DNA of 55,020 bases, the filler included, from Circinaria calcarea (lineage: Eukaryota), in NCBI GenBank assembly GCA_051942165.1. It is 5 parts of 5 records of this genome, joined end to end, with 100 filler letters (N's around TTAATTAATTAA, not from the genome) between each part and the next. Parts side by side here need not be neighbours in the genome. Positions count along the whole stretch, not along the records: positions 22,069 to 32,996 come from JAVECS010000741.1; 4 more parts are not named here. One strand, given 5' to 3'. Below the pieces are notes generated by a model. That model searched no databases, had not been told where the DNA came from, and saw only the letters and a list, made by a program, of their open reading frames with translations. Below are positions 14,123-46,035 of this stretch, piece after piece. Made by a program: the position numbers and the translations under genes. How positions within the stretch are numbered: position 1 is the first letter of the stretch; each line of letters opens with the position of its first letter.

Positions 14123-15594
14123 GACTTGGACCGCAGAAAAGCAGGGCTCGAATGAGTTGGCTCCAAAGTGTGCGACAATAATATTCCTATTTGGTATTTC
14201 TAATCTACCTCCGCTCATACAATGTATTCTGACTTACGAGACATCTAAAAGTAGCTATGGTATCTTTACGCAAATGGCCGACAACCTGGTATCACCCGGC
14301 CGCTACGATCCGAATGCTGGCGGAGTTTTTATTATATGCTGTACAATTAGGTTCAGAGCAAGGATACCGATAGAAGGTTTAGATTAAGCGGTTAGGCAGC
14401 CTGTGTTAGAACTTCGGAGTGGCAATTGGGAAGTAGTGGTCAGAGTAGAGGAGAGCCAAAGTGGTGATGAGTCAATCTATTTCCTTTAATCCTTGTGAAT
14501 TTTCTCATGTTGCTTATTCGTGACCCTCCGGCTATTCTAACCATGGAACACCCGACTAACTTTGACTAGAGCTCTCCTATGGTTATCCAAATGTATAATG
14601 TACTCGGTGGATATAATGTTGAAAATAGTCACAATAGTCTAAATCGGAATGACTCCGGTAGACGAACGATTTCACTTGACATACCCTCGTTTTAGTACAA
14701 CACTAACCGTTTGGCCCTCGGCTATCATTATCCAATATACAGCAATGTTAGACTCGACTGATACTTTTCTACCCCGAGACCTAATTATACCTACCTCGAT
14801 ACATTTTCTGAGCCTAGGAAACCTCATCCGTTCAACCATTCTACTCTGCATCTATATAAGTAATAGGTACGTCTATGGAGCTTCGCTTCGTGGAAAGTCT
14901 CCACCTGAGGAACCGTCAAATCATAATTCTGTAATGGAAGATCTTCCTCTGTAGTCAAGTCAATTGATTCTAATGCTCGCACAAGCTTCTAACCAAATAA
15001 ATAGGATGTCTGGTAACAGCTCGTGCATCTTGGTGGTCAGAAGCCAGAAAGTCAACTTTGTAGTAGGGCTACCTCAACTCTTAACGCAGATGCATCCGAT
15101 TTCCCCAAGCTCGTGCAAAGGATATATGCCAATACTGATCGGGATACAAACCAAATCCTACACAGCTTTCTCGTGATTGGGGTATTCTAGGAAATGCATG
15201 ATCTTAGGAGTAAAGGCAGAACCAGAGATGTCGCAAGTTACTCAGTCTAGGAAGAGGATTTGCCGTGGCCATATTCAGGACCCAATACAGAAACACTCGA
15301 TCCAAACGCTTCGAGAGATTGCCTTGTGCAATAAGAATTTATCAGAAAGACTTGGAGAGCGCATTGTTCGAGGTCACTACGACTCACAAGGACTTCAGAT
15401 CGCAAGAATGCAAAGCGATTAAGGCAATTTGGCTGCACAAACTACGGACGCCCAGATTATCTTTCAGATCAGAAGCAGAACATTTAAGGTTAACACAGTT
15501 CACACAACTTTCACTTGCTTGCTAACGCTGATGATCATCTACTATTACCTACGTATTTAACCCGATCCCTCAAACTCATCAAGACCCACAACCC

Positions 15595-16548
15595 ATGGCA
15601 GATTCCACAGGACATACAGACATCAACGACCAGAAGGAAATGTCAATGCAGGAGCCGACAAAGCTCTCATCTGGGGGGAACTCCTCTCAACAGCCTCTCA
15701 ACACGGTGAGGTTGTTTCTAATACCTATTACAAGTAAATCTTCGAACAATCTACGTAACTAGAGTGGTTGGGATCGACTGACCAGTTTACAGTCCATTTA
15801 ATTTCACAATTTTCACACTGCTTGTGGGAGAAGCCAAAGCCAGCTTCTCCGCTCATGCAGACATTTCGTCCGAGTCACCAGTCCTCGCGCGAATTTGCAG
15901 TGTGCCTTTCGCAGAAAACCTTCATGGAGTAATCCATCTTCCAGGCGACCTCGCTGTGGACATTAGACGACTGCTTGAGTATCTCTACTCCGGAACCTAC
16001 AGTGCCAAGGTGGACAATAATCCACAGAGCAGAGACCCGGAAATACTTCTTGAGCTGGCTCACATGTACATTTTGGCGGACAATACCAACTCAATCATTT
16101 CAAGGTGATCACGGTGGTGAAGACTATTGATATCATGGTGATATCGTCCCTTCCGAAGACATTTCTTCAGATAGCGCATGACATATACAAGAACACACCA
16201 GAGACGGACCGCACCTTCAGAAGGTTCTTCGCCGCCACCTTTCCGGTAATAGTCAGGAGGGTCAGTGAAGCAAGCAGCACATATCTCAAAGAGCTAGTTC
16301 ATGACGGGGGTATGCTAGAAAGTGATATCTGTACTGCCCAGATCAAGGCCTTTGACTAGAACGAAGCCACATTGGTGGCATGCCAAGTGGAGGTTGAGAA
16401 ATGGAAGGTCAAATATGGAGATGCAGAGGAGGGCAAGGCGATGACCGCCAACACGGCCAGAGCGATGCATGCGGGCAACCACGTTCGGTGTCAGCGCTGT
16501 ACTTTTCCAGTGCAATACCACAACCCTTGCCTTGAGCGGCAAATCTAA
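15595..16548 (+). pseudogene. BTB/POZ pseudogene, array copy 2
   Basis: BTB motifs (FTLLVG, SPVLARIC, LLEYLY); 1-nt deletion in ADKYQL at ~16080; in-frame TAG at 16357-16359 with the frame continuing to HAGNHVRCQRCTFP; exon 1 phase also mismatched. Confidence 0.85.
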
Positions 16549-17376
16549 CATTAGACAACTCAAGTAGTCCGCTTTGCTCGCTTTCCACTCGGGCTTCAAC
16601 TGTTACAGGTACGGAACCTGATCTGGACCCTATACGACGCATGAGACATCTTTCTAATCAGAACGGCATATCAGTCAGGAGTGTTAAATCTGGTCGCAGA
16701 CCTGCTCTCCGCTTGAATATTGAGATTGAGAAATGGCAGGGATGGACGCCGCCACCAGGCGAGCGTTGTATCTCTTTGAGCAAATTCTTTCATATTTTTC
16801 AAAACCCGGTACATTGTCGAACCGTCTTCTATCCGCACTAGTCGAGAAAGATCGATCGTCTATAGAAATTATAATCGTCTAAGCTGGATTCGGTATCTTA
16901 GAGTGCCCACAGCTACTTAGATCATGGCTTTCCTACTCCTGATATCGAATTAAGGAGAACGTATGCTAAAGTAAATTACTAACGTGGAGCACAACACCCC
17001 CGCTAGGTACGATCATCCATCTTCTTTCTTACACTTTGACCCTTCTAAAGCACGAGCCATCTCGCTGACCACTGGGATGAATGAATATTCATAGACGAGC
17101 AACGAGAGTAAGGTCCTTCACTCCAGTTTCAACACCAGCATCTCAAAACTCCCGTCAGCTAGTCTTGAGTTCTGGAATCACGCATCCATACCTGCAAGGC
17201 CGTCGGTGATACAACAATCCTCGATCCTAGGAGCGGTCGTGAAATCTAGACTCGTCCTCGAACACCATCAAGGGCACCTAGCTGTATACGCTAGGAACCC
17301 TGAACCGGAAGTCTCACTGCACATCCTTTTGGCTTCCCACCTAGCAGTTTCAGAGTATCCACTCAATTCTGACACG

Positions 17377-18445
17377 ATGGTTGGAAATGTAGTAGCTGGT
17401 AAGGAGGGCCCTAAGAGCAAAGAACCTGAGGGAGGACAAGCTGTTCCAACTACTTTTGGCAGGTAAAGATTCTACGTGACTTCCTCTTTTCGATCTACCT
17501 AACCACACATCTAGGCGTTTTGACTCAGAAATCTTCACGATCATCGTTGGAGATACAAAATCACGCTTCATGGCTCATGTCAGCGTCTTATCTCAATCTC
17601 CAGTCCTTGCATGTATGTGCAGTGGACCTTTCCAAGAGAGCTTGAGCAAGCTTATCAGTCTACCCGACGATGACGCCGCAAACTTTGGACTACTACTGGA
17701 ATTTCTCTACCAAGATAATCTTCCAGATTTGATAATCTCAGGGTCCAATGCGTATATCGAAACGCTCGCAGATATCTACATACTAGCGGACAAATACCAG
17801 CTACAAACTCTCAAGGAGGCCGTCATCTGGCAACTGCGCTCCTGGGATGGTCTCTACAATACTCCAATGGACTTCTTCAGAATGGCACACAGGATCTACC
17901 ATGATATCTCCCATTCGGTGTCTGACAAGAGTCTGCATGATTACTTCCACAAGCAAGCGAGACTTAAATTGCCTCTGCTGACTTCCTATGGAGTCGGCTA
18001 TTTAGAAGAGCTTCTAGATCATGGAGGAAGATTTGCTACGGATGTATTTAAAATACAACATGATTTGATGATAGATGTCAAGACTGTCAGAGACCAACTA
18101 GAGAAGAAACTCACACAAATTTGCCATGACGAGGAAATAGCGGCGGAACGCTATAGATTGCTGAGCGAACGTCTAGGGAATGCAGAGAAACAACATGCTC
18201 TAAGTTTGGAGGACATGCAAGGCCAGTTGGCAAAGACTCAAAAACACTTGGGAGCTGCGAGAGACAAATCTAATAAATTGTGTACTAAGTACGCGATAGC
18301 TAAAATAGACCACACGAACAACCATGATCCATGTGCTTCTTGCCGTTATCCTGAAGGTGGGTCTTTTCACTTTTCTGTCCTTTACCGGTTCAGACATTTA
18401 TCAGCTGACACATATTCAAGGCACATAGTGACTGATTATGGTTAG
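17377..18445 (+). CDS. BTB/POZ - coiled coil - HxxxHxxCxxC protein, array copy 3 (intact)
   Basis: Exons 17377-17462 and 17515 onward; RFDSEIFTIIVG...SPVLACMC...IYILADKYQL; tail HTNNHDPCASCRYP. A last intron after ~18356 is possible. Confidence 0.88.
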
Positions 18446-19116
18446 CTGTCAACAGACTGTATCCGTTAGAGAATTGGAATTACTTGGATTATTTAACCAG
18501 ATTGTGAACTGTCAGCACCACACTCTGACTGATCTATTCAATCTACACTGCTGATACAGTTGTTGAAGGTCGTGGATGTGTTCAAAAGGCGAGGTACTCC
18601 TTTCTTAGCACCTGCCTTATGCAATAGTTTCTTCAGGAGCTTTGACCACCCGCAAAATCATAAAATTGTTGTGCGGTGTGTCTGTGAAAATGCTGCAATT
18701 GCCGTGAACCTATTCATCGTACTCTCCGAGATTTCAATTTTGAAATTCAAGTAACACTTAAATCTAGAGTAGTAATATCCTCGTGACCATGTATGCCCTA
18801 CGGCTATACCTCATTGGGTATTAATCATTTGTCGCCACATACAACACGCAAGCGAGGAATTAGTCATAGGCCACAAACGACCCAGGCGTATAAGTTAATT
18901 CATCACCGCATAAAGTGTGGAGATCAGCATTCAATCTCTCCAAACACTACAGCAAAGACATTCTCCATCAAGTTCTAAGATCCTGAGTCTCATCTTACTC
19001 ATCTACCTTGAGTCTTCATCCAGCATCGAGTACCTACAGTCTCAATTAACCATCGTACGGCCTTGGTCATTCTAGCCGCCTTGAGCGGATCCGTCAGTTC
19101 CGAGAACAAGTCTGAG

Positions 19117-20147
19117 ATGGATACTACCAAGTACTCCAGAATGGAAGAAGTAGCTATACCTTCGGTTGAAACGTCGTCGTGCGTCAAGTTTCTAGTCGAC
19201 TCTGACCAGATGGGCTCGTAAGTCTCCCGATTAACGTCAAGCTACCCACGGGTGTACCTTTAACGCTTGGCAACAGGCGGTTCGCCTCAAAGGTGTTTAC
19301 TATTACGGTTGGAGACTCCAACTCGACATTCTCGGCTCATGCCAATATCTTATCCAAATCACCTGTGCTGGCTCGAATGTGCCAAGCCCCCTTTCAGGAG
19401 AGCCTTACTGGTCACATCGACCTCCCTGATGACAGCGCCGAGGACTTTGGATTTCTGCTGGAGTACCTGTACATTGAAAATCTGGCGGTCCCCCTTTTCG
19501 ACACCGAGGAAGCTGAAATTGCGTTTGCGAATAAACTCGCCGACATTTATATCATCGCCGATAAGTACCAAGTCATCTCCCTCAAGTTTCGCATCGTCAA
19601 GGAGTTCATCTCCATCACTCCTTTCTCCGATAATCCGTCGGCTTTTTTCCAGATGGCCCATCGAATGTACCATGACACGTCCGGTTCGAAATCCAATAGT
19701 CCGTTCCGCGATTATTTCGAGTACCGTGCCGCGCTCGTGATGCGTTACATGAATGATGACGTCCTCAAAGTTCTGGACGGCCTCCTCGAGGACGGAGGCA
19801 AGTTTGCGGTGGATATCGCCAAAGCCATGCGCCGTGAGCTCGACTACGAAGTGTGCGAGAGACTCAAGGACTAGCATACGCTTGCGGAAACTGAATCAAC
19901 GTTGATCGCTGTGACCTCCACCATGGAGGCGGTCAAAGAGGACCTAGCAGCCGCGGATGAACGAGAAAAGGTGGCGGCAAGAACCGGCAGGGACGTGAAA
20001 GTGCAGTTGCGATACCAGCAAGATAAATTTAATAAATCCAGAATCCAGCATGGGCACCACCATCCTTCTTGCACCTTGTGCACATTCTCGGATTCGGTGA
20101 GTCTGTATGATACGACGGAATCTGCAATGGAGAGGCGACGGTACTGA
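19117..20147 (+). CDS. BTB/POZ - coiled coil - HxxxHxxCxxC protein, array copy 4, with one in-frame TAG at 19872-19874
   Basis: Exons 19117-19217 and 19277 onward; ORFs 19293-19874 and 19902-20147 share a frame; tail HGHHHPSCTLCTFS. Confidence 0.85.
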
Positions 20148-21420
20148 TTCCCTGGTCTAGCAATACACCCCCAGGCCATAATCATAGGATCGTGCTTAGG
20201 AGACATTAGGGCCCAGCCAGTGTCACTTCCTTCAGCTACCAATTCACTTTCACAACATCTCACGCTACCACTCCATTTACCCTACCCCAGATAGCACAAC
20301 CGTTCGAGCAATCGATGTAGTCACATTTTCCCAAGACCGGTCGGCTAGAGCAGCACTGGTCGATGGCGCAATGGACAGGATTGTGTAAGCTGAATAGTCC
20401 GAGAGCTGCAGGTACGGGTGATGGGGGCCTAAGGCTTTTATCATAGGCAGCATGGACCATCTGTAATCGGCTAAGGGAAGCCCACCGTACCCAACCTCGA
20501 GAGATTAGTTGAAGTCCGGAGGTACTGCTGTGTTGAGAGTTTCGGATACATACAGCGGCTGAAAAGGTTTACTCCCACATATTCGTACCTCTTCTTCTTT
20601 ATTCTTCCCGGCTTTTTCAAATCCCCCCCTCACTCGAGTAACAGCTGCAAGTCATACTAAGCACTCACCCAGCACAGCCATAGAAGCTGGACTTTGAAAA
20701 ACCCGGTAATGCCAATCTTGAATCCCTCCTTTCACCCCCTACTCTCACCCCCAATCGCCCTTTGTCCAAATTCTGACCGCGTTGATTCTTGACCGTCGTG
20801 GAAAGGTATGCTTTATGGGATTCCTCTCTTCATGTCTTTGCGTAAATGTTGGATTACCTTCCAAATCTAGAAGGTCACAATCCACGCCTCACCGCTCATG
20901 GAGAACACCTAATAAAGTCCTAGGTCGAGGCCATGACCTCCGGTCAACTCTATGATAAGTCGAGTTTCTTGCGAGACAGTAAGAACAGTAGGCTTGGTTT
21001 TGCACATCAATGAATAGTTTACTCGTGAAACTATAGGTATGTACAAACCCCGAGAGGTAAGAAAAGAATATATCCATCTAAAGCAAGATTGAAACAGACT
21101 AGACAAGATGTTCATCGGAGCATGTTGTTCCTTTCGATTAATGCGCTTGAATATATTCAGGCACACATCTTAAGACTTTCTAATCTCTTGCCGTCAAGCT
21201 GACAGATATTACATAAGGATTGCGATGCGGGTTGATGTTACAAAGAACAAAATATGTAGGAAATATGTAACATTTACCGCACCCACCCCGCCCGAACAGT
21301 GTAGTTCCTTATCGCGCCGTATACTCCGATGCCGTATATGCAACATATCATACAGCCTTGTCGTAAAGTTGAATAGGCGGACGACAAGGATCAAGAAAAC
21401 ACCGTCGAATGCAAAGATAA

Positions 21421-22068: not shown

Positions 22069-22347
22069 TTTGAGAGTAGTGAGAGCAGGGAGGCAGTCAA
22101 TGCGGTAACCTGGGGCGCGTTTCCGGGCAAGGAAATCGTCACTCCAACCATTGTAGAGGAAGTTAGTTTCCGAGCCTGGGGAGAGGAGGCTTTTGGGATA
22201 TGGGCGGAGTGGGAGAGGTGCTATTTCGGAAACAGTGCTTCGAGTAATCTTCTGAGAGAGGTGAGAAAAGACACTTGGTTGGTCAATGTCATTTGTCATG
22301 ACTACAGGGAGCCCGGTACCTTATGGCAGATTCTGTTGGAAAGTTAA
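22069..22347 (+). CDS. MET12: Methylenetetrahydrofolate reductase C-terminus (Met12-type), partial
   Basis: Not in the ORF track; hand translation gives NAVTWGAFPGKEIVTPTIVEEVSFRAWGEEAF...WLVNVICHDY...LLES*. Confidence 0.85.
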   Translation, partial: FESSESREAVNAVTWGAFPGKEIVTPTIVEEVSFRAWGEEAFGIWAEWERCYFGNSASSNLLREVRKDTWLVNVICHDYREPGTLWQILLES

Positions 22348-23336
22348 AGGGCGGATTCTTACTATTCCTGCGGATTTAGCGTGGCGTTCAGGTGAGTGCA
22401 AGCATTTTCATGGCGATACCATAGCTTTAGAGTCAACGACATTAACGTGTATGGACGAAATGCGGCGCACGTTAGCTGTCCGTCTAAGCAGCCACGAAAA
22501 ACCGTAGAGCATGAGAAGTAAACGGTTTTGGTAACTGCTATAGAAGCTGGTTCCCTTTTCCAATCATTGTAAAACCGGCGACTTATGTCAGCTTGAGGTC
22601 GAAGCACCGAGAACATCCCAGTCAGTTTAGTAGTATTTAACAGCTTGCTGAACAGATAAACTCTAGCTTAGGTAACAAAGCATTTCGCTTCTCATTCGTA
22701 CTGCCAAAGTAGTTGGAGGATCGAAAAGGCCCATGAAACCAGGCCAGCTCCGGAGGTAAAGCTAACTTCTACACTAAGAGTGTAGACATAGATATCTAGA
22801 CAAGGAAGAGGAATAGAACAATAACTGTTCTACTATATCTTATAATCTGATAGGTAATAGGCACTCGCGGGCTGACCACGCCCTTCAGGGTTGGTTATCT
22901 GAGGAGAGACAACCGCTCCGCTGCGGGAGAGCAGCTGGTAGCTCCGGCTGTAAACCCCTGCGAAACATGCTAAGCGAGGAAGCTAGACAGCGGACCATTG
23001 TTTACCCAAAGATTGTGACCAGCAGCAAAAACAACAATCCCTTTGTATCGGTTGTAACTGTACTGGATAACATACGGCGGTGCCTGTTGCTGTCAGAGGT
23101 CAAAACTTCACACTCGCTTCATATCACATTCGTTTTCTGCTTATACAGAGTTCTTCGCGCTCTACGGAGTACACCATTCTCTTTGCGCGACAAACGGGGC
23201 ATTTCGCATTTGCACTGCAACTCGATACTGGCACAATCATCCAATTTATTCGTCCCAAGATCAATCTGGTCCAACCAGCGACCTTCGGTCCCACTACTCC
23301 CTCTGGAGGTAGCAATTTTCCACGGATTGATATAAC

Positions 23337-26300
23337 ATGGCAACTACGACGCCCAATCTACCTACCCGATTTCCATGCTGGTGCAGGGCGATATACTCAT
23401 GGGGAGGAGAAACCAAGAAAGACTTAGGATTCGTGGAAGGCGATCTCATTGAATGTCTCAATGCTGGCGATGGCTCATGGTGGATGGGTCGCCTGCGTCG
23501 CGACAAGCGCGCGATGGGACTTTTCCCATCGAATTTTGTGCAAGTCCTGGAGAGTAACTTTGTTCCTGTGAGCAGGGCTACTAGTCCAATGCCAGGACAA
23601 GGTGCAAATGGGAATTCCATACGTTCTGCAAGCCCAAATCCCCAGGCCAAGAAGAGCAAGACTCCTAGGCCATTTCAATCATACGGTAAAGGGCCATCGC
23701 CAGGTCCAACGATAAAGTCTCAAGGGGTAGAAGTAAGAGCGGCGGCGCCGTCGCCAAGTCCAATTAGAGGTCCTGGATACTCTCAACAGTTTCCACAGCC
23801 CTCTACCTTCGAGGGCAACTCTCCTTATAGTTCTCGAGCGCCCTCGCCAGCTCCCCCTGTCCACCGATACACTCCATCACGAGGCCCTTCTCCTAGCCCC
23901 TATGAGGACTTTGGCTCTCCTCCGCCTCCTGCACCACCACCACACAGAGTCGCCTACCATGCTCCTGCTCCCAGAGCGACCCCGTCTCCAACTCCGTCCA
24001 TGAACGATCGATACCCAACTTTTTCAAGAGCACAATCTCCGATACCCCCTTCTCCTGGCGTCCATGGGCATACACCTTCTCCTCTACGTGATGCAATGGA
24101 TGATGTCATGTCTTCCTTACACGATATGGCACTGCATCGCAACGCCCCATCACCCTCTCCAGAGAGATCTCTGTCACCCATCGACCCTTGGTCTCCAGAA
24201 GCCTTTGAGGAGCTCAGGACAAACCCAAGGAGAAGAAATAACGAAAGACCTAGAACTTCAATGGGCGTAGCTGAGCCGCATGGTAATGGATATCACACCG
24301 ATAGTGGTTATGAGAGCCAACCCGGTTCTGCCTTTTACAGCGAAGAGGAGAAACCGAATCTAAGTACCTATGTCTCGCGAATGGAAAGCCACCTACAAAA
24401 TGTACCTCACAATCCAGAGCCAGGAATCGGTTGTTTCGTGACCGGAAACGACATGGGTCCACCGCCTGCTCCGCCACGCAAAAATTCGCCCTTTGAGCCG
24501 AGCAGTTTCTCATCTCTCAGCAAACGAAGTAGCAAACCCGAGAGGGCTGACTCAGACCGCAGATTGAGAAATCGCAAATCTGCGTATGAGCTTGGAAGAG
24601 AAATGATAGGTCGAACGTTTACGACAAAGTCAACTGCTACGAATTCCTCGAGTGGAGTCCAGAGTACTACCACTAATAGTTCCGGAAGTACTCAAATGAC
24701 AAGCCAAAGTCTCATGAGTGGGTATTCTGCTGGTGGCTTCAGTGCTACAAGTGCCGGTAGCCTGGCCAGAAGGAAAGGTTGGGGTAGCATTAGCAGAGGG
24801 AAACCGTTTAACGGGAGAGGTGCTCAGGATGACATATTGGGCCAACTTAATGGTGGCTCAATGACAAGGCCGCAAACACCGCTCACGAGTATAAGTTATC
24901 ATTCCAGCCACAACTCTAGACCGGGGTCAGCTGTTCCAGTCGAGTGGGCAGGTAGTGTTGCAGATTCTGGTGGTATATTAGGAGGCTTGACAGCACCGAA
25001 GGCCAAGAAGAGTGGTTTCTTCAAGAAGCTTGTCGAATCGGCGAAGACAGGTGCTGCTAGTGCAAGAAGTAGTATTGCTGCAGGACAAGCGGAGTCCTCT
25101 CGTAGCCCGGTCAAGGGTCTACTTCCCAACGGAGTCAACGGTATTGCTGGCGGGAGCGCTGCAAGGAGCATGGGCCTGGGAGCTGGCGGCGGTGGTAGTG
25201 CTATAGACTGGGTTCAAGTTCGCCGAGACGTTAATCGATCCAACTCTCTAAGTCGGAACGAGAGGGTGGAAAGGGCAGAAAGGTGCCAGATGATGGACCA
25301 TCCTGTAATTCCTTCTGTCGATGCTTTACTTGAAGCAGCTGAAGGCGACGAAGGCCTTGATGGACTACCAATCTCAGAACCAACAAACTTCCAGGCAGCG
25401 AACCTCCAACTAGTCGACAAGAGTGCCCGATTTATTACCAGCGTCCCGCCACTAACAAATCCAACTAGCCTTACCCTAGGGTATGTTTGTCGGCCATATA
25501 GGAATGATGTGCAGAGGCTCCGAGCAATCTTTACCTGGGTTAGCGAGAAGGTGGCTTGGGAAGAAGATTACGAAGGGGAAGTTGATTCTCGACGGGTAAT
25601 TAACGCAAGAAGAGGTTGCGCAGAGGAAGTGGCTGTCCTCGTTGTGGAGATGTGTCTTGCAGTGGGCTTGCATGCCGAAGTGGTACGGGGGTATCTCAAG
25701 GGTCCTGGAGACATTATCGACGTGGACAGCATGCCAAGGCCAAACCACTGGTGGAATGCTGTTCTGGTAGATGGCGAATGGAGAATAATGGACTGTTCGC
25801 TGGCTAGCCCAACAAACCCAAAACGAAGTCTATACTCCAATGCTGGCTCTCAGGTTGCAGAAACATGGTGGTTCCTAGCTCGACCCATGGAGATTTGTTA
25901 TACACATATCCCACAACATCTAGAGCAACAGCATATTTGCCCTCCTATATCACCAGATATCCTTCTAGCTTTGCCTTGTGCTTGTCCGCCATATTTCAAG
26001 AACACCCTCCGCATCATAGACTTTGATACTAGTCTCCTACGCATCGAAGACCTTGAGCTCGTTCATATCCAGTTTACCGTCCCTCCAGATATCGAATGCT
26101 TTGCCGACGTCGAAGTCCGTGCCTACGCTCGAGATGCAGATGGTGATCTTTTCGAAAGCGGAGACACGGTGGCAAAACGTGCGCTTGCTCAGGCCGAGTG
26201 GATCAACGGTGAAAAGCGCTATACTGTCAAGGCGCTCCTCCCCGGCGACGAAGGTCACGGCATACTCAAAATTTACGCCGGTAAGCGAGGGCTCATGCAC

Positions 26301-26858
26301 TCCATCAAAGACAATCCACATCCACTTGCATTTGCACTTCCGATCATTCATACAGGGCAGAATCCTCCGTATGAGTTCCTCCTCCGGCATCCCACTCCAC
26401 ATGCCCAACGTCACGATCTCTACGTGGCACAGCCACAATGCGCAAGACTAGCCGTCAACAATACCTTTGTCTTCGCCGTGCGTCAGCATCCTTCTTCTGT
26501 TACCTGCAGCTCTCCATCTATCGGTTGTGCCTCTCCCCTACCGTTTGCCCGCCCAACGTCTGCCATGTCTATGACTTCTTCATCTGCCTCCATACCCACG
26601 AATAATTATTTTGCTCAGCAAGCGCCTACAACTGCTGCCCAAGGCCAGAAACCAGCCAAACTGGCCATCCAAGCCCCGAGTGGGAAGATACTACGGCTAG
26701 CGAGAAAAAGCGAGCATACGACTGCGCTCGCAGAGATGGGAGATGGCGGGGCCTGGGAAACAATTATCAAGATTGGGGAAAGAGGCACTTGGAGGGGTCT
26801 TGTGCTTGCGGATAGGAGCGCTCGCTGGTGCGTTTTCGGAGAGTGGGAGTGTGTCTAG
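23337..26858 (+). CDS. CYK3: Cytokinesis protein Cyk3 (SH3 plus transglutaminase-like domain)
   Basis: N-terminal SH3 (YSWGGETKKDLGFVEGD...WWMG...GLFPSNFV), proline-rich linker, transglutaminase-like region VRGYLK...NHWWNAVLVDGEWRIMD; 1173 aa, intronless. Confidence 0.93.
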   Translation: MATTTPNLPTRFPCWCRAIYSWGGETKKDLGFVEGDLIECLNAGDGSWWMGRLRRDKRAMGLFPSNFVQVLESNFVPVSRATSPMPGQGANGNSIRSASPNPQAKKSKTPRPFQSYGKGPSPGPTIKSQGVEVRAAAPSPSPIRGPGYSQQFPQPSTFEGNSPYSSRAPSPAPPVHRYTPSRGPSPSPYEDFGSPPPPAPPPHRVAYHAPAPRATPSPTPSMNDRYPTFSRAQSPIPPSPGVHGHTPSPLRDAMDDVMSSLHDMALHRNAPSPSPERSLSPIDPWSPEAFEELRTNPRRRNNERPRTSMGVAEPHGNGYHTDSGYESQPGSAFYSEEEKPNLSTYVSRMESHLQNVPHNPEPGIGCFVTGNDMGPPPAPPRKNSPFEPSSFSSLSKRSSKPERADSDRRLRNRKSAYELGREMIGRTFTTKSTATNSSSGVQSTTTNSSGSTQMTSQSLMSGYSAGGFSATSAGSLARRKGWGSISRGKPFNGRGAQDDILGQLNGGSMTRPQTPLTSISYHSSHNSRPGSAVPVEWAGSVADSGGILGGLTAPKAKKSGFFKKLVESAKTGAASARSSIAAGQAESSRSPVKGLLPNGVNGIAGGSAARSMGLGAGGGGSAIDWVQVRRDVNRSNSLSRNERVERAERCQMMDHPVIPSVDALLEAAEGDEGLDGLPISEPTNFQAANLQLVDKSARFITSVPPLTNPTSLTLGYVCRPYRNDVQRLRAIFTWVSEKVAWEEDYEGEVDSRRVINARRGCAEEVAVLVVEMCLAVGLHAEVVRGYLKGPGDIIDVDSMPRPNHWWNAVLVDGEWRIMDCSLASPTNPKRSLYSNAGSQVAETWWFLARPMEICYTHIPQHLEQQHICPPISPDILLALPCACPPYFKNTLRIIDFDTSLLRIEDLELVHIQFTVPPDIECFADVEVRAYARDADGDLFESGDTVAKRALAQAEWINGEKRYTVKALLPGDEGHGILKIYAGKRGLMHSIKDNPHPLAFALPIIHTGQNPPYEFLLRHPTPHAQRHDLYVAQPQCARLAVNNTFVFAVRQHPSSVTCSSPSIGCASPLPFARPTSAMSMTSSSASIPTNNYFAQQAPTTAAQGQKPAKLAIQAPSGKILRLARKSEHTTALAEMGDGGAWETIIKIGERGTWRGLVLADRSARWCVFGEWECV

Positions 26859-27484
26859 GTTTAGTTGTATGCGATAATTTGGGGGAAGTAATACCCAATG
26901 TACTTGAAGCTGATCTTGTATACTATGGTGGGGAATTCATATGGGGAGTAATTGGACCGGTGCTCATATTTCTCAGGCGGTCTCCCAATCTAGGGTGGAG
27001 ATATCTATATGAGCGAGGTGTCAGACAACAGGAAATCTGGTACTGGGAGGATGCCAGGATCTGTACATGGAGAGGCAACCGCCTTGGATTAAGGTGGTTT
27101 CAAAGTTCTTGTATACATGACTTTTTCAACGACTTAAAAGCACAGTTCTGATAATTCTTATACACAACAGGTGCAAGTCACAAATATTGTGCTCCAACAG
27201 TCTTGAGAGCTTTGGCCCGAAATTGGTCAAGCAACTCATCAGAATACGTTGCCTTGCAAAATAGATTTCGAGCGCTCAAATAGGTAATCACCGCGTTTAA
27301 GAAGGCTTTGCATCTCGCATGACGTAGAGCTTCTCTTAGATTCTCGCTTATGATAAGAAGAAAGATAAGGCCCTTTGGTTCTCCCCTCCGTCATCATTCC
27401 TTCAGATTGTTCGAGATATTTGAGCTACAAGAGCGAGCAAGCAATCACGATTACCCTCTCCACTTTCCCCACCAATCCCTAAAA

Positions 27485-28375
27485 ATGGGCGACCGCAGCG
27501 CCTTCTTCTACGGTACTGCCTCCCATCTATGCGTGCTATACCTCCAGCATCCCAATGGCTGAAATCTCAAACCATAGGCACATTAGTACGTCTCCTCCTT
27601 TCCCCGGCCATGGAAAACTACTCCAACTCACAGCGTCATGTAAGATGGCCCCCTCCGTCCTCCACCGCATTTGCCACGGCACCACCACCCCTACCCCCTT
27701 CCAAAAATCCTCCCTCAATGTGTTCCCTGCCCTCCTCCCTTCCTACCGCCGCCACCGCGTCCTCCGCTGCGACTACCCGGCCATGATCCCCTCTCCTAGC
27801 CCTACTTCCAGCGTTCGTGGGACTTTCGTTTCCGGGCTTACGGAGGGTGATCTATGGCGGCTGGACATTTTCGAGGGGGATGAGTACGAGAGGAAGAAAG
27901 TAATGGTGCGGCTGTTAGAGGAAGGAGAAGGGAAACAGGAAGGAGAAGGGAGGGAGATGGAAGCAGACACGTATGTCTGGATTGCGGGCGAGGAGAACTT
28001 GGAGGATGAGGAGTGGGATTTTGAGCACTTTTGCCAGGAGAAGATTGGGAAGTGGGTGGGGGGGAGCGGAAACGCGGATGTACAAGGTGAGTCTGATACT
28101 AGGGCGTCGATATTCGGTTTGTCCCACCTTCCCCACCGGAAGGAAAAAAGGGAACATTGGGGAGCGAAGAGGAGAGTGTGATAGAGCGATCGAATATGAT
28201 ATGGACGTCGAAGCTGATTAATTGGACAGATGTTGATAATGCCGTAAGGGCACAGCTCGAGGATCCGACAGGCGGGCGAGGGGAAGGCGGTAAGATCACG
28301 AAGAAGCTAGGGCTGGATAGTACGGATGGGGTGGAAGGGGAGAAGGAGAAGGAGATCTTGGAGAGTGCGGTGTAG
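27485..28375 (+). CDS. AIG2-like / gamma-glutamylcyclotransferase-fold protein
   Basis: FFYGTLMAP built across exon 1, microexon 27578-27585 and exon 27645-28086; DYPAM, LDIFEGDEYER, YVW; last exon ends 28375. Confidence 0.88.
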
Positions 28376-29566
28376 GAGATGTGGACGCGTAGGTGGTTCG
28401 TTATACTTTCTTCGCATTAATGGAGATAGAAATGGCTGCACCATAGATTAGGCTAAAACTAATACGGGGCTTATTTATACTAGTTTAAAAAAAAGTTAAA
28501 CCCCCACTCTCCCTTCCTTTTCCTCCCTCCCCATCTCTCTCTCACGCTCATCACCATATTCTACTCATTCTTCTGAATACTCTTCAAGACAAATAAATCC
28601 CACAAATCCTACAGACCCGACCCGGCAACCAAATAAATCCACTAATTTACTTTTACCCCGTAGTCCTACCCGCTCGAACCTATCCGAGGTAGTCAAAAAC
28701 GAATTCTACCTAATTAGAGCTCTACTTCAACATTCAAATGGCCATCTCCAAGCTTGGAAAAAGTCCGGAGAGTTAAGGAAAGGGTTATAAGGGAAAGTTT
28801 TGAGAGGGTGAAGAAAAAGGGGGTAAGTGCCCTCTTTGGAATAAGTTTGGAACGAATGGGGTTGGGAATGAGATTTGCTGTGTAGGTCCTATTGGGGGGG
28901 GAGAGGGAGGGGGACAACTATTCCATGTGTACGGGAATCTTACCTGCTTTTTTCTCAGTTCAGTGAATCCCGAAAGCAATCTATTATATGTATCCTACCA
29001 CTCAAACTTTGCTCGTTGCATAGCTTCTCTACTCACGAGTTTTAGAAAACATAGGAATCACGTGTACAGGTGTAAAATGATAGTGATTCAAGGATAGAAT
29101 TGCACATGACACCTTTCAATCCCCGTTGGGAGAAGGAGCATTGCATGAGGCAAATCTCCCCCACTCGGCTGAACCGAGTAAAAATGTCTCGTGTTGACTG
29201 CCATGACTTCTGTGTCGACCTCAACAGCCATTGGACGTTTGGTGGCCTGAACAGAGGGCAGATCCGCTTGTTGGAAGGATATATGGGCATATGGAAGGGA
29301 TGTGGGGTATTGGCCCCAATCACCTTTTTCTTCTTCCTTTAGAATTGACTTTGGATTTGCATGGGGGAGGTCGAGATCTTGTTTGCCCTTCGTAGTGATT
29401 ATAACCCTAAATGACATTGGCCTAGGAGAAATGATCTCAAACGCGTGGATCGCCTTATAATTAAGCGAAAGTGCTGTAGATCTAATTGGTCAGATCCTGC
29501 TGACACGAAACGCGAATGATAAAGAAATGAATTTTGTACTTCGTACATAGGCCAATCAATCAATGA

Positions 29567-29789
29567 TGTTAGGTAGGCCCGGAATAACAGTGCTCCCAGC
29601 CAATCAATACTCGTCTGCCAGGCAACCCCCGCCTGGCCTTATATAGCTCCATTGTGCATCCACAACGGAGCTATGTTATGCTAGTGGACCTAGTGTGGCC
29701 AATACGAATGCACAGTTTTTGCCAGCTTGCCCCCCCGTGCTTTACAGCATCGGGCTTAGCCCATCGGTGCCGTGCTCCCGAGCATAACA
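29567..29789 (+). mobile_element. Solo-LTR-like element, family A copy 1 (223 bp)
   Basis: Missing from the other palindrome arm; TGTTA...TAACA ends; TATATAG at 29640; colinear similarity to 40945-41164. Confidence 0.75.
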
Positions 29790-29957
29790 AATTTCTAGCA
29801 AAAAAAAACTGAACCCCCCGAATCTAGACACTGTTTGTGACTACAAATATGATGTGTCGTGCCCTCAAGCCCTTTTCTTGAATGGATGCTCTGTGGTCGA
29901 GTCAATTGACCGCTTGACTGTATAATAATTAAAACTTGGATCTGGGCCTGCCCCAAG

Positions 29958-30856
29958 ATGGGGATCCTCAATACCCTCATCTCCTCCTTTGCCCCAATTT
30001 TGTATGTCGTTTCCAATTAGCTCTCTCGTGCCTTCGCTAACTCTAGAGGTTGCAGCCTCATTCTCTCCCCTCTGACGTCTTATACGGACCAAATCGTCTC
30101 CATCCACCGCACTCGCACCTCCGCCGGTTTCTCCCTCGACATTCCCTTAATCATGCTGACCGCCTCGATCCTCAAGATCTTCTACTGGCCCGGCGCCCGT
30201 TACGATCTCAGCTTGCTGGTTCAGGCCGTCATAATGGTAGGAGTGCAGGTTGTGCTTCTCAAGGTTGCGCTGGACAATCGACCTGGATGGAGAGGGGACG
30301 GAGGTGTACCGTTTGTGGGAGGTCAGGCGAAAGGATGGAGACCCTGGGGTTTTTGGAGGTGGAGGACTCAGCGATTGTAAGATGTCCTGGAGTGAAGAGA
30401 GAGAGAGTGTGTGTGTGCCAGTTATCATAACGGGGGGTGGTCTGACATCGGTGCGATGGATCTAGATATTGGGAATTCCTCGCTCTTCTCACCCTCTCCC
30501 TCCTCGTCCTTCAAACCCTCCTCGCTCCTTCACCCATCTCGCAACAACTTTACACAACCTTGATCGGCTACCTCGGCCTAGCCATTGAAGCCACGCTCCC
30601 CCTCCCGCAAATATATTCCAACCAACAATCCCAGAGTTGTAAGGGCTTCCGGGTGTCCGTCTTGGGGAATTGGTTATTCGGCGATGCAATGAAGATGTTT
30701 TACTTCTTTGCCAGTGAGCCGGGCAGAGTACCCTGGGCGTTCAAGGCTTGCGGTTGTTTCCAAGCGGCGTGCGACGTAGGACTGGGAGTGCAGTATTGGC
30801 TGTACGGAGACGGAGAAAGTGACGACGGAAGGGGAAGGGATATTAGATTAGTGTAG
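29958..30856 (+). CDS. ANY1: PQ-loop membrane protein (Any1/PQLC1-like), copy A
   Basis: Three exons: MGILNTLISSFAPI..., SYTDQIVSIHRTRTSAGFSLDIPLIML..., EATLPLPQIYSNQQSQSCKGFR; ends GRDIRLV*. Confidence 0.85.
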
Positions 30857-30898
30857 AAATTTCGTCATGGGAAAATGTAGAATTTTTGAGATATTTCC

Positions 30899-31887
30899 TC
30901 ATGTATAAATCCTATCGAACCTTGACCATACCCCACCCGAAAAAACCATCAACCACCATGTCCCACACTGCATAACCACCCCAAACCCCCATGTACCGCC
31001 TCCTCCCCTTCCGTCGTCACTTTCTCCGTCTCCGTACAGCCAATACTGCACTCCCAGTCCCACGTCGCACGTCGCTTGGAAACACCCGCACGCCTTGAAC
31101 GCCCAGGGTACTCTGCCCGGCTCACTGGCAAAGAAGTAAAACATCTTCATCGCATCGCCGAATAACCAATTCCCCAAGACGGATACCCGGAAGCCCTTAC
31201 AGGACTGGGATTGTTGGTTGGAATATATCTGCGGGAGGGGGAGCGTGGCTTCGATGGCTAGGCCGAGGTAGCCGATCAAGGTTGTGTAAAGTTGTTGCGA
31301 GACGGGTGAAGGAGCGAGGAGGGTTTGAAGGACGAGGAGGGAAAGGGTGAGGAGAGCGAGGAATTCCCAATATCTAGATCCGTAGCACCCATGTCAGCCC
31401 CCTCCCTGTTATGATAACTGGCACACGCACACACACAATCTTTCTCTCTTCACTCCAGGACATCTTACAGTCGCTGAGTCCTCCACCTCCAAAAGCCCCA
31501 GGGTCTCCATCCTTTCGCCTGACCTCCCACAAACGGTACACCTCCGTCCCCTCTCCATCCAGGTCGATTGTCCAGCGCAACCTTGAGAAGTACAACCTGC
31601 ACTCCTACCATAATGACGGCCTGAACCAGCAGGCTGAGATCGTAACGGGCGCCGGGCCAGTAGAAGATCTTGAGGATCGAGGCGGTCAGCATGATCAAGG
31701 GAATGTCGAGGGAGAAACCGGCGGAGGTGCGAGTGCGGTGGATGGAGAGGATTTGGTCCGTATAAGACGTCAGAGGGGAGAGAATGAGGCTGCAGGCTCT
31801 GGAGTTAGCGAAGGCACGAGAGAGCTAATTGGAAACAACATACAAGATTGGGGCAAAGGAGGAGATGAGGGTATTGAGGATGCCCAT
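30899..31887 (-). CDS. ANY1: PQ-loop membrane protein (Any1/PQLC1-like), copy B with a different C-terminus
   Basis: Same exons as copy A on the opposite strand; diverges after DDGRG and reads through the spacer to a stop at 30899. Confidence 0.82.
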
Positions 31888-32663
31888 CTTGGGGCAGGCC
31901 CAGATCCAAGTTTTAATTATTATACAGTCAAAGGGTCAATTGACTCGACCACAGAGCATCCATTCAAGAGAAGGGCTTGAGGGCACGACACATCATATTT
32001 GTAGTCACAAACGGTGTCTAGATTAATCGGTTGATTGATTGGCCTATGTACGAAGTATAAAATTTATTTCTTTAGCATTCGCGTTTCGTGTCAGCCGGAT
32101 CTGACCAATTAGATCTATGGTACAGCACTTTCGCTTAATTACAAGGCGACTCCACGTGTTGAAACTAATTCTTCTAGGCCCAATGTCATTTAGGGTTATA
32201 AGCCACTACGAAGGGCAAACAAGATCTCGATCTTCCCCATGCAAATCAAAAGTCAGATCTAACGTAAGAAGAAAAAGGTGATTGGAGCCAATACCTTACA
32301 TCCCTTCCATATGCCATATATCCTTCCAACAAGTGGGATCTGCCCTCTGTTCAGGCCACCAAACGTCCGATGGCTGTTGAGGTCGACACGGAAGGCATGG
32401 CAGTTCTACACGAGACATTTTTACTCGGTTCAGCCGAGTGGGGGAGATTTGCCTCATGCAATGCTCCTTCTCCCAACGGGATTGAAAGGTGCCATGGGCA
32501 ATGGTTGTTAATGAATCACCATCATTTTACACCTGTACGGGCGATTCCTATGTCTTCTAAAACTCGTGAGTGGAGAAGCTATGCAACGAGCAAAGTTTGA
32601 GTGGCAAGAGATATACAATACATTGCTCTCGGGATTCACTGGACGGAAAAAAAAGCAGGTAAG

Positions 32664-32740
32664 TGTCAAAGGTATGTACGCCTATCAAGCCTGTCTAAGG
32701 GCGGGGTACCCCCTTTTGGTGCAGTGGCAAAAGCTTGACA
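32664..32740. mobile_element. 77-bp TG...CA element with perfect 5-bp target-site duplication
   Basis: GTAAG (32659-32663) - TGTCAA...TTGACA - GTAAG (32741-32745); the other arm has one CTTAC at 28939-28943 (empty site). Confidence 0.88.
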
Positions 32741-32996
32741 GTAAGATTCCCCTACACATGGAATAGGTGTCTCCCTAAACCCTCTAATGCCCTCGATAAC
32801 GACCCGGAATCTACCCATACTCATAAATTACACCTTTATACTCGTACCCGATTTCCCTTGAAACTTGATCTCCAACCCCTTTATCTCCCTACCATTATCC
32901 ATCCTTTTACTCTTTTCCCGTCTCCCTACTCATTCCCACAATCCCCATATACCATCCCCATATACCTTCACATTCATCCTCACCCCTATCCCTCCC

Positions 32997-42362: not shown

Positions 42363-42726
42363 ACAGCGCTCATCAGATATAGATGGGATCTGGGAGCTGA
42401 GAAGAGATACCTATCGAGACTGATACCGACATGATATGATCAGTAAAAGGATGCCATTTCAGCGTGGCGTTGTTCCTGGCAAGGGCTTCAGCCACCAGTC
42501 CCAACTCCGTACCAATCGGTTCTTCATGAACGGCACATAATAGGGTTGATTGGGTTACTTCGAGATAAGTTTGGGAAGGATTGCGGCGTTGATCTAGTGA
42601 GATTGCACATCAAGCGCTGGGCCATGTCTCCTGGGTTAAAATTAAAATGGATCCTGGTGGTCGAAGGCGATCTTCTGCTGTGTGATTCCAGATGTTCTAC
42701 TTTTCCCCTTCTTTGTTCAATAAAAA

Positions 42727-43890
42727 ATGCTCCATCAACTCCAAAGTCGCTCTGTTATTGTCTTTCCCTTTACGGCCTTACTCTACTTAACGTCTGCTGC
42801 ATCGTTGGCACTAGAGAATGCCATATATGGCCTCTCCTCGTTCGATTTCCTGCAACAAATCCCGAGACCTGGTAGCTCAGCCTTGTTGAAGAGGGACGTC
42901 TGTACGGACGCGATTCCGGGAACAGTTTCACAAATATGTACTCCTGGAAATACGTTGTGCTGTGCGTACGTCCCTCTTGACACCGCCATCGTACTCATAT
43001 TAGCAAATCAGGCGTGCCGAGCAGAGTAAACATCGCTTTCCCGCAATGCCAGCAACTGTTCGGTCAAGGGTTCTGTTGCGTGGAAGAGGATGGCGCGTGC
43101 TATACAGACATGCAGTCGGATTGCTCGGCTGCAGGCGCTGTAAGATGCTGTGGGTAATGGTTGATTAAGGGAGCAATAGTAACGTGAGACTGATCCGTTG
43201 GAAATAGCTGTGCTCGCAGAGGGAACGACCGAAGCATGTTGTCCTCAGTTCACTGAATGCCCGAGCAACTTCAACCAAACCACACCTTTGGTCCGTTGTC
43301 AGTTTACCCCTCTCGCCGGTGGAAGTACATCTTCTACCTCTTCGAGTACGTTGACGTCCAGCACAACATCTATATCCACAAGCGCATCTGCCACTCCATC
43401 TACTTCGAGTACTTCCCAATCCGTATCTGCTTCAATTATATCGACACCCACTTCTTCGAATTCAGCACAAACATCTGCTATGCAAATATCGTCTGTCCTT
43501 TCATCAAGCGAGCCCGAAACTACAAATACATCTCCAAATGTTCCAGACTCCAAAGGTCTATCGGCTGGCGCAAATGCTGGAATCGGAATTGCCGCAGCTG
43601 TGGCTGTTTTGGCCTTTGCAGCATTAGGCTTCTGTTTGTACAGAAGAGGGAAAAGGAAAGGCGAGCTAGTCGCCCGGGGGATGAGTGCCGACAGGTTCCC
43701 GCCTGTATCATATCACGACGCAACTGACACAACCGGACAACCGCTGAGTCCCGACAATCAGCGCTTCCATAGGGATGTCAATTACGGCAAGCACGAACTT
43801 CCTAGTGAAAGACAGTTCAATGAACTTGCTACCGAAAGGGATTTTGAATTAAGCGAGCTGTCGGCGGGAGGTCGCCACTCCTATGGGTAG
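42727..43890 (+). CDS. Single-pass membrane protein with Cys-rich ectodomain and Ser/Thr stalk
   Basis: Signal-like N-terminus, KR site, Cys-rich exons (CTPGNTLCC, EACCPQFTEC), S/T tract, GLSAGANAGIGIAAAVAVLAFAALGFCLY TM; intron boundaries approximate. Confidence 0.78.
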
Positions 43891-44017
43891 ATTCTCCTTG
43901 AACAGCGTTGTATTGATACTCCTAACCTATGAATATCGTTCTTGCATTAGCTGTAAGTTGAGCGTTCTGGCAAAATACCACAAATGTCCTCTCGAGAAGT
44001 TTGCGAGCCATTCCCAC

Positions 44018-44117: not shown

Positions 44118-45378
44118 GAATTAGATGAAGCATCACAAACAAAAGTATGCCCCTATTTAGCAGAATCAACAAGCCGTAGTAATACTATATGATTTGGACC
44201 CTACCTCGAGGAGAGACGCAGGACTGTGTCTACAATACATACTTTGACTTCTAGGAAGGTAATCGGTAGGTCGAGCAAGGCCGTCTCTAAAAAGTTTCTG
44301 TAGTCCTGCTACATCATGGTCTTTAATAGCCTTCGAGAGCAAAGGATTATCATTGATCGTGATAGGAGTCAAATTGACTGAGAACCCCGGCCAGCTGCTA
44401 TGGAGATCACGGCGAGTTTCCAGGGCAAATTGGAGCATAATCCTAGATAACCACCGTGGCGGAACAAAGGTTATCCTTACTTTTGATTCCGCGGATTCTT
44501 GGTCAGACGATCTATCCGATGAGTTGGACTGGCACATTCCAGAATTGTCTACCAGCAGTGACCCGATGGGCAGAGAATAGGATTTATAGCTCCAGTATAC
44601 AATAGCTGCCATGGCAGAGTTGAATCCGGACCGTCGTCGGCTGCGATTAGGTGAAGTCTTAGTGATTTGTTGGATTGACCCTATCTCAAGCTGGCTTTGT
44701 AATAGATGCTCTATTCGGGTCATCGAGGTTTGCTGTGACTGGTAGCTCTCGTGATTTAATAACTCTATGCTGGACAGTTTGGAGCAGACGGCATGGAACC
44801 CAGTGCTACTGATATCCACGAGCTTTGTCGTGTTCTGGGAAATTCCATCGAGTTTTCGACTTGTATCAGCACATTGCATTAGCACTAGATCACTTTGAAT
44901 TAAGACCCATTGGTACTTACTCGCTCATGAACAGCTGTATCAGTGTCAAAGTTTCAGTATGAGCAGATATCTTTCGCTGGAACTTGGCAATGGTATCTTC
45001 ATCGAAATAGCGGCGAATCCGTAATCGAACAAGTTTTGAGGAGACCTTGGGACCATTCAAATAACGATCAAGTTTTGTCACAACCGTTTGGAAGTCTTCC
45101 ATGTCCTCCTGCATCTGGGCAGCGGAGTCTGCCCATAGCTCTTGCAAGCATTGTGATAGGTCCGCATCTTTATGCTCAGCCAGCCGAGCTTGAATCTCTT
45201 CAAGCAATTTCTCCAAGACCTTGATGCTTTCTATGAGTTTTCTGACCTCTTCTGGGGCATCTCTCAGCTTATTCCGAAGGTTGTAAAGTGTCTTGCAGCT
45301 ATTCGCGACAACGGCGGCTAGGGTCGCAAGGCTGGCCGCGAAGCCTACAAGCGCGATCCCCGCAGAGGCAGGATCCAT
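44118..45378 (-). CDS. HeLo-like (fungal STAND N-terminal) domain protein, probably with ankyrin repeats; 3' truncated
   Basis: MDPASAGIALVGFAASLATLA...LRDAPEEVRKL helical N-terminus; second exon ends with ankyrin-like AIKDHDVAGLQKLFRDGLARPTD; runs off the contig. Confidence 0.75.
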
Positions 45379-46035
45379 ATCTCACAGACTTCCCCAAGAT
45401 GGAATACACTTCAGATCCTCTGTAAGATAGAGGAACCATGTAATGCAATGGCCTTCGGATCAAAAGGATTGCATCTCGTTGAGGGCAGAGGGCAGAGTAC
45501 TTGAAGGCATCACAGTACTGTACAGCCACGCAGCCTGCATGCTCCAGGTCACGTAAGAGCCATTTCTACAGCAAATGACAAAGAGCATAGGGTATTACAA
45601 GACTATCTCCCTGCCTCACACGCTGCATTTCGTCTTGTGACTGGAGGCCGTCAATGCAGCCTTAGTGGACAGAAATCTGCCTTGCGGATGTGGTTGGAGC
45701 CTTGGAGACGGAAACGACGACATGCCGACGAGGCTGAACAAGTCGCTGATAGGACATACAACCACCCTTCTGTTTGGAATAGCTGGCATCAATTTCTCGA
45801 GGATGTCAATCCCATATATTTTGGCTAACCCCGTGGTAACAGGTCTAGCAAGTTGGATCTCTGGGATGAACAACTCGTACTTATCGGAGCAAGCAAAGCG
45901 TTCCTCAAGAAAAGTGGTATTGTGAGTGGTATATTTACTTTGTACAAATCGAGTTCCCTTACTTCCTATGTATTTTGCAAAAACCCCGAGTAAAAATACA
46001 TCACCCAAAACCAAACACCATCCCAACCCAATTCC

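Follow-up and report, generated by a model that had tools for sequence, protein, structure and literature searches.

Background

Yeast Any1 has been described as a phospholipid scramblase of the Golgi and endosomes that remains functional when tagged at its C-terminus (PMC11893163). Here, we describe an inverted repeat carrying two convergent genes of the same type in the genome assembly of Circinaria calcarea (GCA_051942165.1; 31.5 Mb in 5512 contigs). The window, that is, the whole stretch of DNA analyzed, has 55,020 nucleotides and consists of five contigs joined by N-linkers. The palindrome is confined to one of these, C741 (JAVECS010000741.1; positions 22069-32996 of the window). From its sequence, the palindrome appears to be a real fold-back (template-switch) inverted duplication in which both proteins have been kept, an origin that we consider probable with only modest confidence.

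Inverted gene duplication can give rise to hairpin or small-RNA loci, for instance the MIR genes of plants and the hairpin RNA (hpRNA) loci of flies, and the arms of such loci decay as coding sequence. In yeast, the inverted junctions described in one study form at interrupted inverted repeats of 2-14 bp that are mostly 40-80 bp apart (PMC10766183). Two further sources of doubled sequence are also relevant to an assembly of this kind. Misjoins by MEGAHIT have been documented that pass through a repeat of which one copy lacks a sequenced start and another a sequenced end (PMC9528984), and a report on lichens describes hybrid, non-haploid thalli with blocks of loss of heterozygosity (LOH) (PMC10512270).

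Structure of the Palindrome and Its Two Genes

Self-BLAST resolves the arms into an inner match (29821-30835 against 31004-32024; 95.5% identity over 1021 columns, E=0), an outer match (28939-29563 against 32031-32663; 89.8% over 636 columns, E=0), and a short outermost one (28902-28943 against 32741-32785). The arms, the 168-bp spacer, and the 42 bp between the two stop codons are thus as given in a preliminary description of this DNA, except that the arms reach ~16-19 bp further out. Beyond them, the outer flanks are each unique and unrelated to one another.

Each arm holds a gene of three exons in which the ATG, two GT-AG introns, and the frame are all kept and the translation is unbroken; the convergent stops are at 30854-30856 (plus strand) and 30901-30899 (minus strand). 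The two genes had been called intact, and this holds for start, splice sites, and frame, but not fully for the right copy, whose tail was replaced at the junction. This copy is cut at codon 246, so that its native last six codons and stop are gone and 34 new codons, read from the antisense of the spacer, follow instead. The new tail is mildly hydrophobic, with a peak 19-residue hydropathy of 1.27. By contrast, the six-residue tail of the left copy is of the same type as that of the closest homologue, a type that 17 of 85 homologues have. As the left tail is ancestral in type and the right tail is new, the breakpoint lies inside the right copy.

Both genes likely encode lipid scramblases of the Any1/SLC66A2 PQ-loop family, as predicted from their domains and relatives. 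PF04193 is matched in exons 2 and 3 of each copy (E 1e-4 and 1e-13, respectively), and the PQ motif of the second repeat is kept in both, as seen in an alignment. With exon 3 as the query, 85 homologues were found at E<=1e-20, with names that include "Scramblase ANY1-like" and "SLC66 member 2". The closest, at 79% on exon 3, belongs to the lichen fungus Varicellaria rhodocarpa, and other Lecanoromycetes follow, which makes a lichen-forming host likely. The full-length alignment comprised both copies and 21 of the 85 homologues; the family was placed through fungal proteins annotated as Any1, with yeast Any1 itself outside the alignment.

The two copies share 245 codons, in which 18 synonymous and 5 non-synonymous differences were counted. 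This corresponds to a synonymous divergence (dS) of 0.109, a non-synonymous divergence (dN) of 0.009, and a dN/dS of 0.083 (Fisher p 4e-8). The residue changes are V29L, I146V, and A223T; the last exon holds two of them and not the single Ala/Thr change noted before. In the two introns, 4 of 54 and 9 of 89 sites have changed, and in the 137 bp upstream of the ATG only 4. Judged by this pattern of substitution, neither copy has drifted as a pseudogene and both are under purifying selection. This supports the earlier proposal of an old, retained duplicate pair. The assembly contains only these two Any1 copies. In relatives, where copy number had been suggested as a check, Any1 is single at each of 37 related loci, 31 of which include at least 600 bp of downstream sequence. 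Narrow searches of the open-access literature found neither a fungal Any1 duplication nor a lichen palindrome.

The spacer consists of the last codons of the left gene and its AT-rich 3′ flank, followed by a C-rich stretch that is read as the new tail of the right gene. It contains a candidate two-way 3′-end element, TGTATA/TATACA, at 30902-30907, and no AATAAA on either strand. It has no palindromic structure of its own (score 16, against a shuffled mean of 17), and the idea that it is a decayed arm was rejected. The junction sits in a purine run, after which one base differs, and the ancestral partner repeat is inseparable from the arm. At the other end of the right arm, the tail that runs to the contig end matches neither the left flank nor any of four neighboring contig stretches. 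Its alignment scores against the left flank, C1686, C1467, and C1266 were reached by 9, 13, 6, and 38 of 40 shuffles, respectively. The part of the arms upstream of the genes was also considered as a hidden second gene or a GGCT remnant. Both were rejected, given the lack of a Pfam match, the 1-bp indels between the arms, and the lack of a translated match to the upstream regions of relatives. One Rfam match, to snR86, scored 41 bits (gathering score, 120); what it picks up is the hairpin, and it was likewise rejected. The coordinates of all features are collected in Table 1.

Table 1. Features of contig C741, in positions of the window.
Feature	Position	Strand	Remarks
Left arm of inverted repeat	28902..30835	+	self-BLAST
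Right arm of inverted repeat	31004..32785	-	self-BLAST
Spacer	30836..31003	.	168 bp, unique; single occurrence in assembly
Left Any1/SLC66A2-type PQ-loop gene (predicted)	29958..30856	+	exons 29958-30001, 30056-30376, 30466-30856; 251 aa; ancestral-type C-terminus
Right Any1/SLC66A2-type PQ-loop gene (predicted)	30899..31887	-	exons 31887-31844, 31789-31469, 31373-30899; 279 aa; codons 1-245 shared, then 34-aa novel tail
Private insert of left arm	29564..29820	.	MITE-like repeat (MITE, miniature inverted-repeat transposable element) without left terminal inverted repeat
Private insert of right arm	32664..32740	.	77-bp TG...CA element, 5-bp target-site duplication
Tail from right arm to contig end	32786..32996	.	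211 bp, unique, C/T-rich
Rest of C741	22069..28901	+	MTHFR 3′ end, CYK3 23331-26858, GGCT ~27480-28375; single in assembly

Private Inserts and Repeat-Induced Point Mutation

Both private inserts are transposon relics. The MITE-like insert of the left arm has at least 42 matches in the assembly, itself included (40 of 111 candidates were scored), and gave no match to RNA families. The element inserted in the right arm occurs elsewhere in the assembly as direct pairs ~400 bp apart, and it is thus likely the solo long terminal repeat (LTR) of a miniature retroelement. A second MITE-like family, of ~220 bp, is present on C1467 (locus positions 2703-2923) in many copies (395 candidates, 40 scored). 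The private inserts had been taken to exclude a simple fold-back artefact. They do set the palindrome apart from a perfect fold-back such as contig C6 (see below); nevertheless, they cannot exclude an assembly join, as two haplotypes would also differ by such inserts.

The pair had also been thought to be retained despite damage elsewhere resembling that of repeat-induced point mutation (RIP), but RIP indices reveal no such signature in the pair, the window, or the sampled contigs. The arms differ by 58 transitions and 32 transversions, and the C-to-T changes fall in CpA (15), CpC (12), CpG (14), and CpT (17) contexts, without the CpA bias that marks RIP. RIP-like 500-bp windows are absent from the 55-kb stretch and number 1 of 902 in the sampled contigs. 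Retroelements tell the same story: 12 of 17 reverse-transcriptase matches have no internal stop, the 12 retroelement loci that were fetched have ordinary TpA/ApT ratios (0.6-0.94), and three retroelement copies that are 90-91% alike are intact. RIP thus appears inactive in this fungus despite two C5-methyltransferase genes in the assembly, which we take from their layout to be DIM-2-like and RID-like. RIP was rejected both as a cause of the palindrome and as a threat to it.

Doubled Blocks across the Assembly

Of eight contigs searched against the assembly, four have collinear second copies on other contigs, 1.6-8.9 kb long and 89-96% identical. These are 8.9 kb at 91-92% for C740, 3.5 kb at 91% for C909 and, among the matches listed, 1.6 kb at 96% for C742 and 2.1 kb at 89% for C743. 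The assembly search gave no second copy for C739, C901, C906, or the CYK3-GGCT part of C741. Gene pairs in the doubled blocks have dS values of 0.065-0.147 and dN/dS values of 0.16-0.30, with one exon at a dS of 0.32. Eight gene pairs, Any1 among them, share one synonymous divergence (pooled proportion of synonymous differences, pS, 0.108; chi2 7.9, df 7, p 0.34); the STAND-type exon 2 pair at dS 0.32 was left out of this test of homogeneity, and p becomes 3e-6 with it. On this measure, the Any1 pair falls into an age class that extends across the assembly. That its divergence is shared with many other doubled blocks was overlooked in the preliminary description.

Several doubled blocks stop at contig ends or enter single-copy flanks. 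For instance, C2931 bridges the gap between C742 and C3754, while C1462 continues into single-copy sequence, and both are allelic in look. The block common to C909 and C374 is internal in both contigs, has unrelated flanks on both sides and a similar dS, and looks like a true dispersed duplicate. Overall, the doubled blocks possibly point to a hybrid or mixed lichen sample, or to a one-time burst of duplication.

Overlaps between contigs are of exactly 141 identical bases, which is presumably MEGAHIT's largest k. One contig, C6 (58,124 bp), is in its entirety a perfect palindrome, with 0 mismatches and no spacer, and ends without a 141-bp neighbor. It is likely an assembler fold-back that doubles 29 kb of genes. 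Identical arms, no spacer, and a contig that is wholly self-complementary would mark such an artefact, whereas the Any1 palindrome has arms of 90-96% identity, a spacer, and private inserts.

Within the window, positions 11036-20761, 42410-44017, and 44118-46198 have such collinear second copies, under purifying selection, on C1462, C1178, C2931, and C2062. Three BTB/POZ-domain genes lie beside a Methyltransf_32 gene at 13412-19874, all of them doubled (Pfam was run on one of the three), and a 23-bp unit is repeated three times in tandem at 574-649. On another contig (C547:1-9944), two intact Ty3-like gag-pol elements that are 88-91% identical lie head to head; the ~50 bp that separate them contain hardly any LTR sequence. 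This pair may be real or may be an LTR-collapse join; it was not counted as a sister event of the palindrome, as its dS of 0.37-0.39 indicates a different age.

The Left End of the Contig and the Gene Neighborhood

Two contigs, C1686 and C1467, both start with the first 141 bases of C741, and each holds a 5′ part of MTHFR. These parts are 96.8% identical over 2042 bp (dS 0.120, dN/dS 0.06). Beyond MTHFR, the flanks of the two contigs are unrelated and gene-bearing, with patatin-type genes in one and MITEs, RTA1, and a zinc-cluster gene in the other; the copy-specific sequence upstream of MTHFR extends for at least 3.8 kb in each. As two MTHFR copies branch off from the left end of C741, the duplication may comprise a block of ~11 kb, with its CYK3-GGCT middle collapsed by the assembler, although this middle could instead be single. 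We infer that the simplest path would run from flank 1 through MTHFR a, [CYK3, GGCT], the left Any1, the spacer, the inverted right Any1, a gap, and an inverted MTHFR b to flank 2.

Among the 37 related loci, MTHFR is near Any1 in 6 and CYK3 in 1. In all 9 of the loci that hold GGCT, it and Any1 are on opposite strands, whereas here GGCT is co-oriented with the left copy. The orientation of GGCT and the scarce linkage of MTHFR and CYK3 in relatives thus indicate a shuffled neighborhood. USP7 is downstream of Any1 in 5 of the 37 loci; here, it is on C1266, behind a p24 gene that is seen in none of them. The genes in the flanks of C1686 and C1467 are also in none of the 37. The gene found downstream of Any1 in one related locus (L051) was not found in the assembly with the query used.

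Origin of the Palindrome

If the duplication is real, a nascent strand, or else a broken end, would have turned back 168 bp downstream of the gene, at a short microhomology in the purine run. The gene and its promoter would then have been copied in reverse, with the junction falling at codon 246 of the new copy. Copying likely extended as far as MTHFR (~11 kb), the CYK3-GGCT middle being merged later by the assembler, and each arm would subsequently have gained a transposon of its own. Survival of the palindrome would be due to the apparent inactivity of RIP and to a stabilizing effect of the spacer and the divergence. At present, the spacer is likely a shared terminator, and the pair would supply a doubled dose of scramblase, with one copy bearing an altered cytosolic tail. 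Both copies are likely still made as protein, and if read-through yields a hairpin RNA, this would be a by-product. In this way, one inverted duplication of a block would explain the MTHFR fork, the unrelated flanks, and the junction together.

Several observations weigh against such a fold-back. The pS of Any1 is indistinguishable from that of seven other doubled genes, as would be the case for alleles or homeologues. Gene-sized inverted repeats were found in none of 46 unselected contigs (~499 kb), so fold-back is not a general source of the doubled blocks. The arms of close palindromes usually homogenize, but no conversion tract was found between these, in which the longest identical run is 95 bp. 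Similarly, young duplicates are expected to show relaxed constraint, but the dN/dS of 0.06-0.08 for Any1 and MTHFR resembles that of single-copy genes. Two MTHFR versions enter C741, yet there are only two Any1 copies, which fits one per haplotype. Moreover, arms of 11 kb need a second rearrangement, as the 211-bp tail is unlike the left flank, and the physical adjacency of the arms is deduced from the contig sequence. Finally, the length of the spacer is outside the spacing of 40-80 bp described as preferred in yeast (PMC10766183).

Several of these observations would be explained by a misjoin of two genomes ~11% apart at synonymous sites, each with one Any1, from either a mixed thallus or a hybrid or diploid lichen with LOH blocks. 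The shared age class, the ortholog-like constraint, the missing conversion tracts, and the 46 contigs without inverted repeats would all follow. The second copies in half of the tested contigs, several of them at contig ends or running into single-copy flanks, the count of exactly two Any1 genes, and the exact overlaps, which indicate a unitig-type assembly, favor it as well. Nevertheless, we think such a misjoin unlikely, and equally so the detailed course that it would take, with a micro-inverted 168-bp segment in one haplotype, a true downstream flank lost at a coverage gap, and an assembler that switched haplotypes inside the spacer. Four coincidences would be required: a micro-inversion that breaks the coding sequence; a long identical run in the spacer even though single-nucleotide differences in the arms were resolved; the loss of the downstream flank in both haplotypes; and sequence specific to one haplotype in two places, upstream of MTHFR and in the right tail. 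In addition, the spacer is present on no other contig. Alternatively, single-copy orthologues of two parental lineages that met in a hybrid nucleus may recently have been joined tail to tail between homeologous segments. This would explain the age class, the ortholog-level dN/dS of Any1 and MTHFR, and the absence of conversion, as well as a contig that is unbroken at the junction, but it needs a rare inverted exchange between homeologues together with the loss or relocation of the distal flank, and we regard it as decidedly improbable. The weights given here to the competing readings are judgements and were not computed. All in all, the palindrome is likely to be an old and otherwise ordinary inverted duplication that dates from the same time as many other doubled blocks, or possibly an assembly join of two haplotypes.

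Possible Hairpin RNA and RNA Interference

It had been proposed that read-through would form a long hairpin RNA, and the geometry of the locus agrees with this: a transcript that extends more than 63 nt past the right stop is predicted to fold on itself. If the join is real, a hairpin is thus a plausible by-product. A stronger claim is that the palindrome has been kept because this hairpin, or overlapping antisense 3′ untranslated regions (UTRs), tunes Any1 by RNA interference (RNAi). A right-copy 3′ UTR of more than 63 nt, or a left-copy one of more than 147 nt, must enter the other arm. For the transcript end, the predicted folding energy is -103 kcal/mol with a right UTR of 63 nt and -249 kcal/mol with one of 149 nt, so that stability rises steeply beyond those lengths. 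The assembly also has three matches to the Dicer dimerization domain (PF03368, over the cut-off), besides the two C5-methyltransferase genes. However, the strong protein-level constraint on both copies points to protein, and not RNA, as the selected product, and the candidate 3′-end element in the spacer would let both mRNAs end there. Furthermore, none of the related loci has a second copy, and the claim requires the join to be real. We therefore consider it very unlikely. Least credible of all would be a hybrid symbiont in which the parental Any1 genes were joined tail to tail and the read-through hairpin of the tail-swapped copy is cut by Dicer into small interfering RNAs (siRNAs) against both, as a dosage control by RNAi. 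The Dicer domain matches are on C10, C5409, and C995. Two are usual in filamentous ascomycetes, and the third may stem from a further doubled block.

Significance and Comparison with Known Systems

If real, this is an uncommon gene-sized palindrome in a filamentous ascomycete, at ~10% neutral divergence and with two copies that still code for protein, in keeping with the apparent lack of RIP. The locus would then be a test of siRNA production and of whether the location of Any1 changes with a new cytosolic tail. The wider point is weightier for users of the assembly: much of its sequence is present twice, with a single age for the doubling (pS ~0.11), and all paralogue calls in it need checks at the level of reads.

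As an inverted segmental duplication of an Any1-family gene, the locus represents a known kind of event. Its genes resemble Any1/Cfs1 (YMR010W) of yeast and human PQLC1/SLC66A2 in the PF04193 matches of both exons, the PQ motif, and the annotation of their homologues. They differ from the relatives in being two where each related locus has one and in the new 34-aa tail of the right copy, and their scramblase role is predicted from sequence. The assembly as a whole recalls the hybrid, non-haploid thalli of Letharia, in that two divergent versions of one age occur in blocks between single-copy sequence; these were demonstrated in the Letharia report by read frequencies (PMC10512270), whereas here they are deduced from contigs. 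With the plant MIR and fly hpRNA loci, the palindrome shares a geometry that would permit a self-complementary transcript matching both mRNAs; in contrast to those loci, its arms still code for protein under purifying selection. Finally, the convergent arms and the short unique spacer are shared with the fold-back duplications of yeast, including those of the origin-dependent inverted-repeat amplification (ODIRA) type, and the junction in a short purine run may be a further resemblance. ODIRA produces a triplication with a second, head-to-head junction, and the spacing described as preferred in yeast is 40-80 bp (PMC10766183). Here, by contrast, there are two copies only, the sequence that follows the right arm does not lead back to the left flank, and arms with ~10% neutral divergence are separated by 168 bp.

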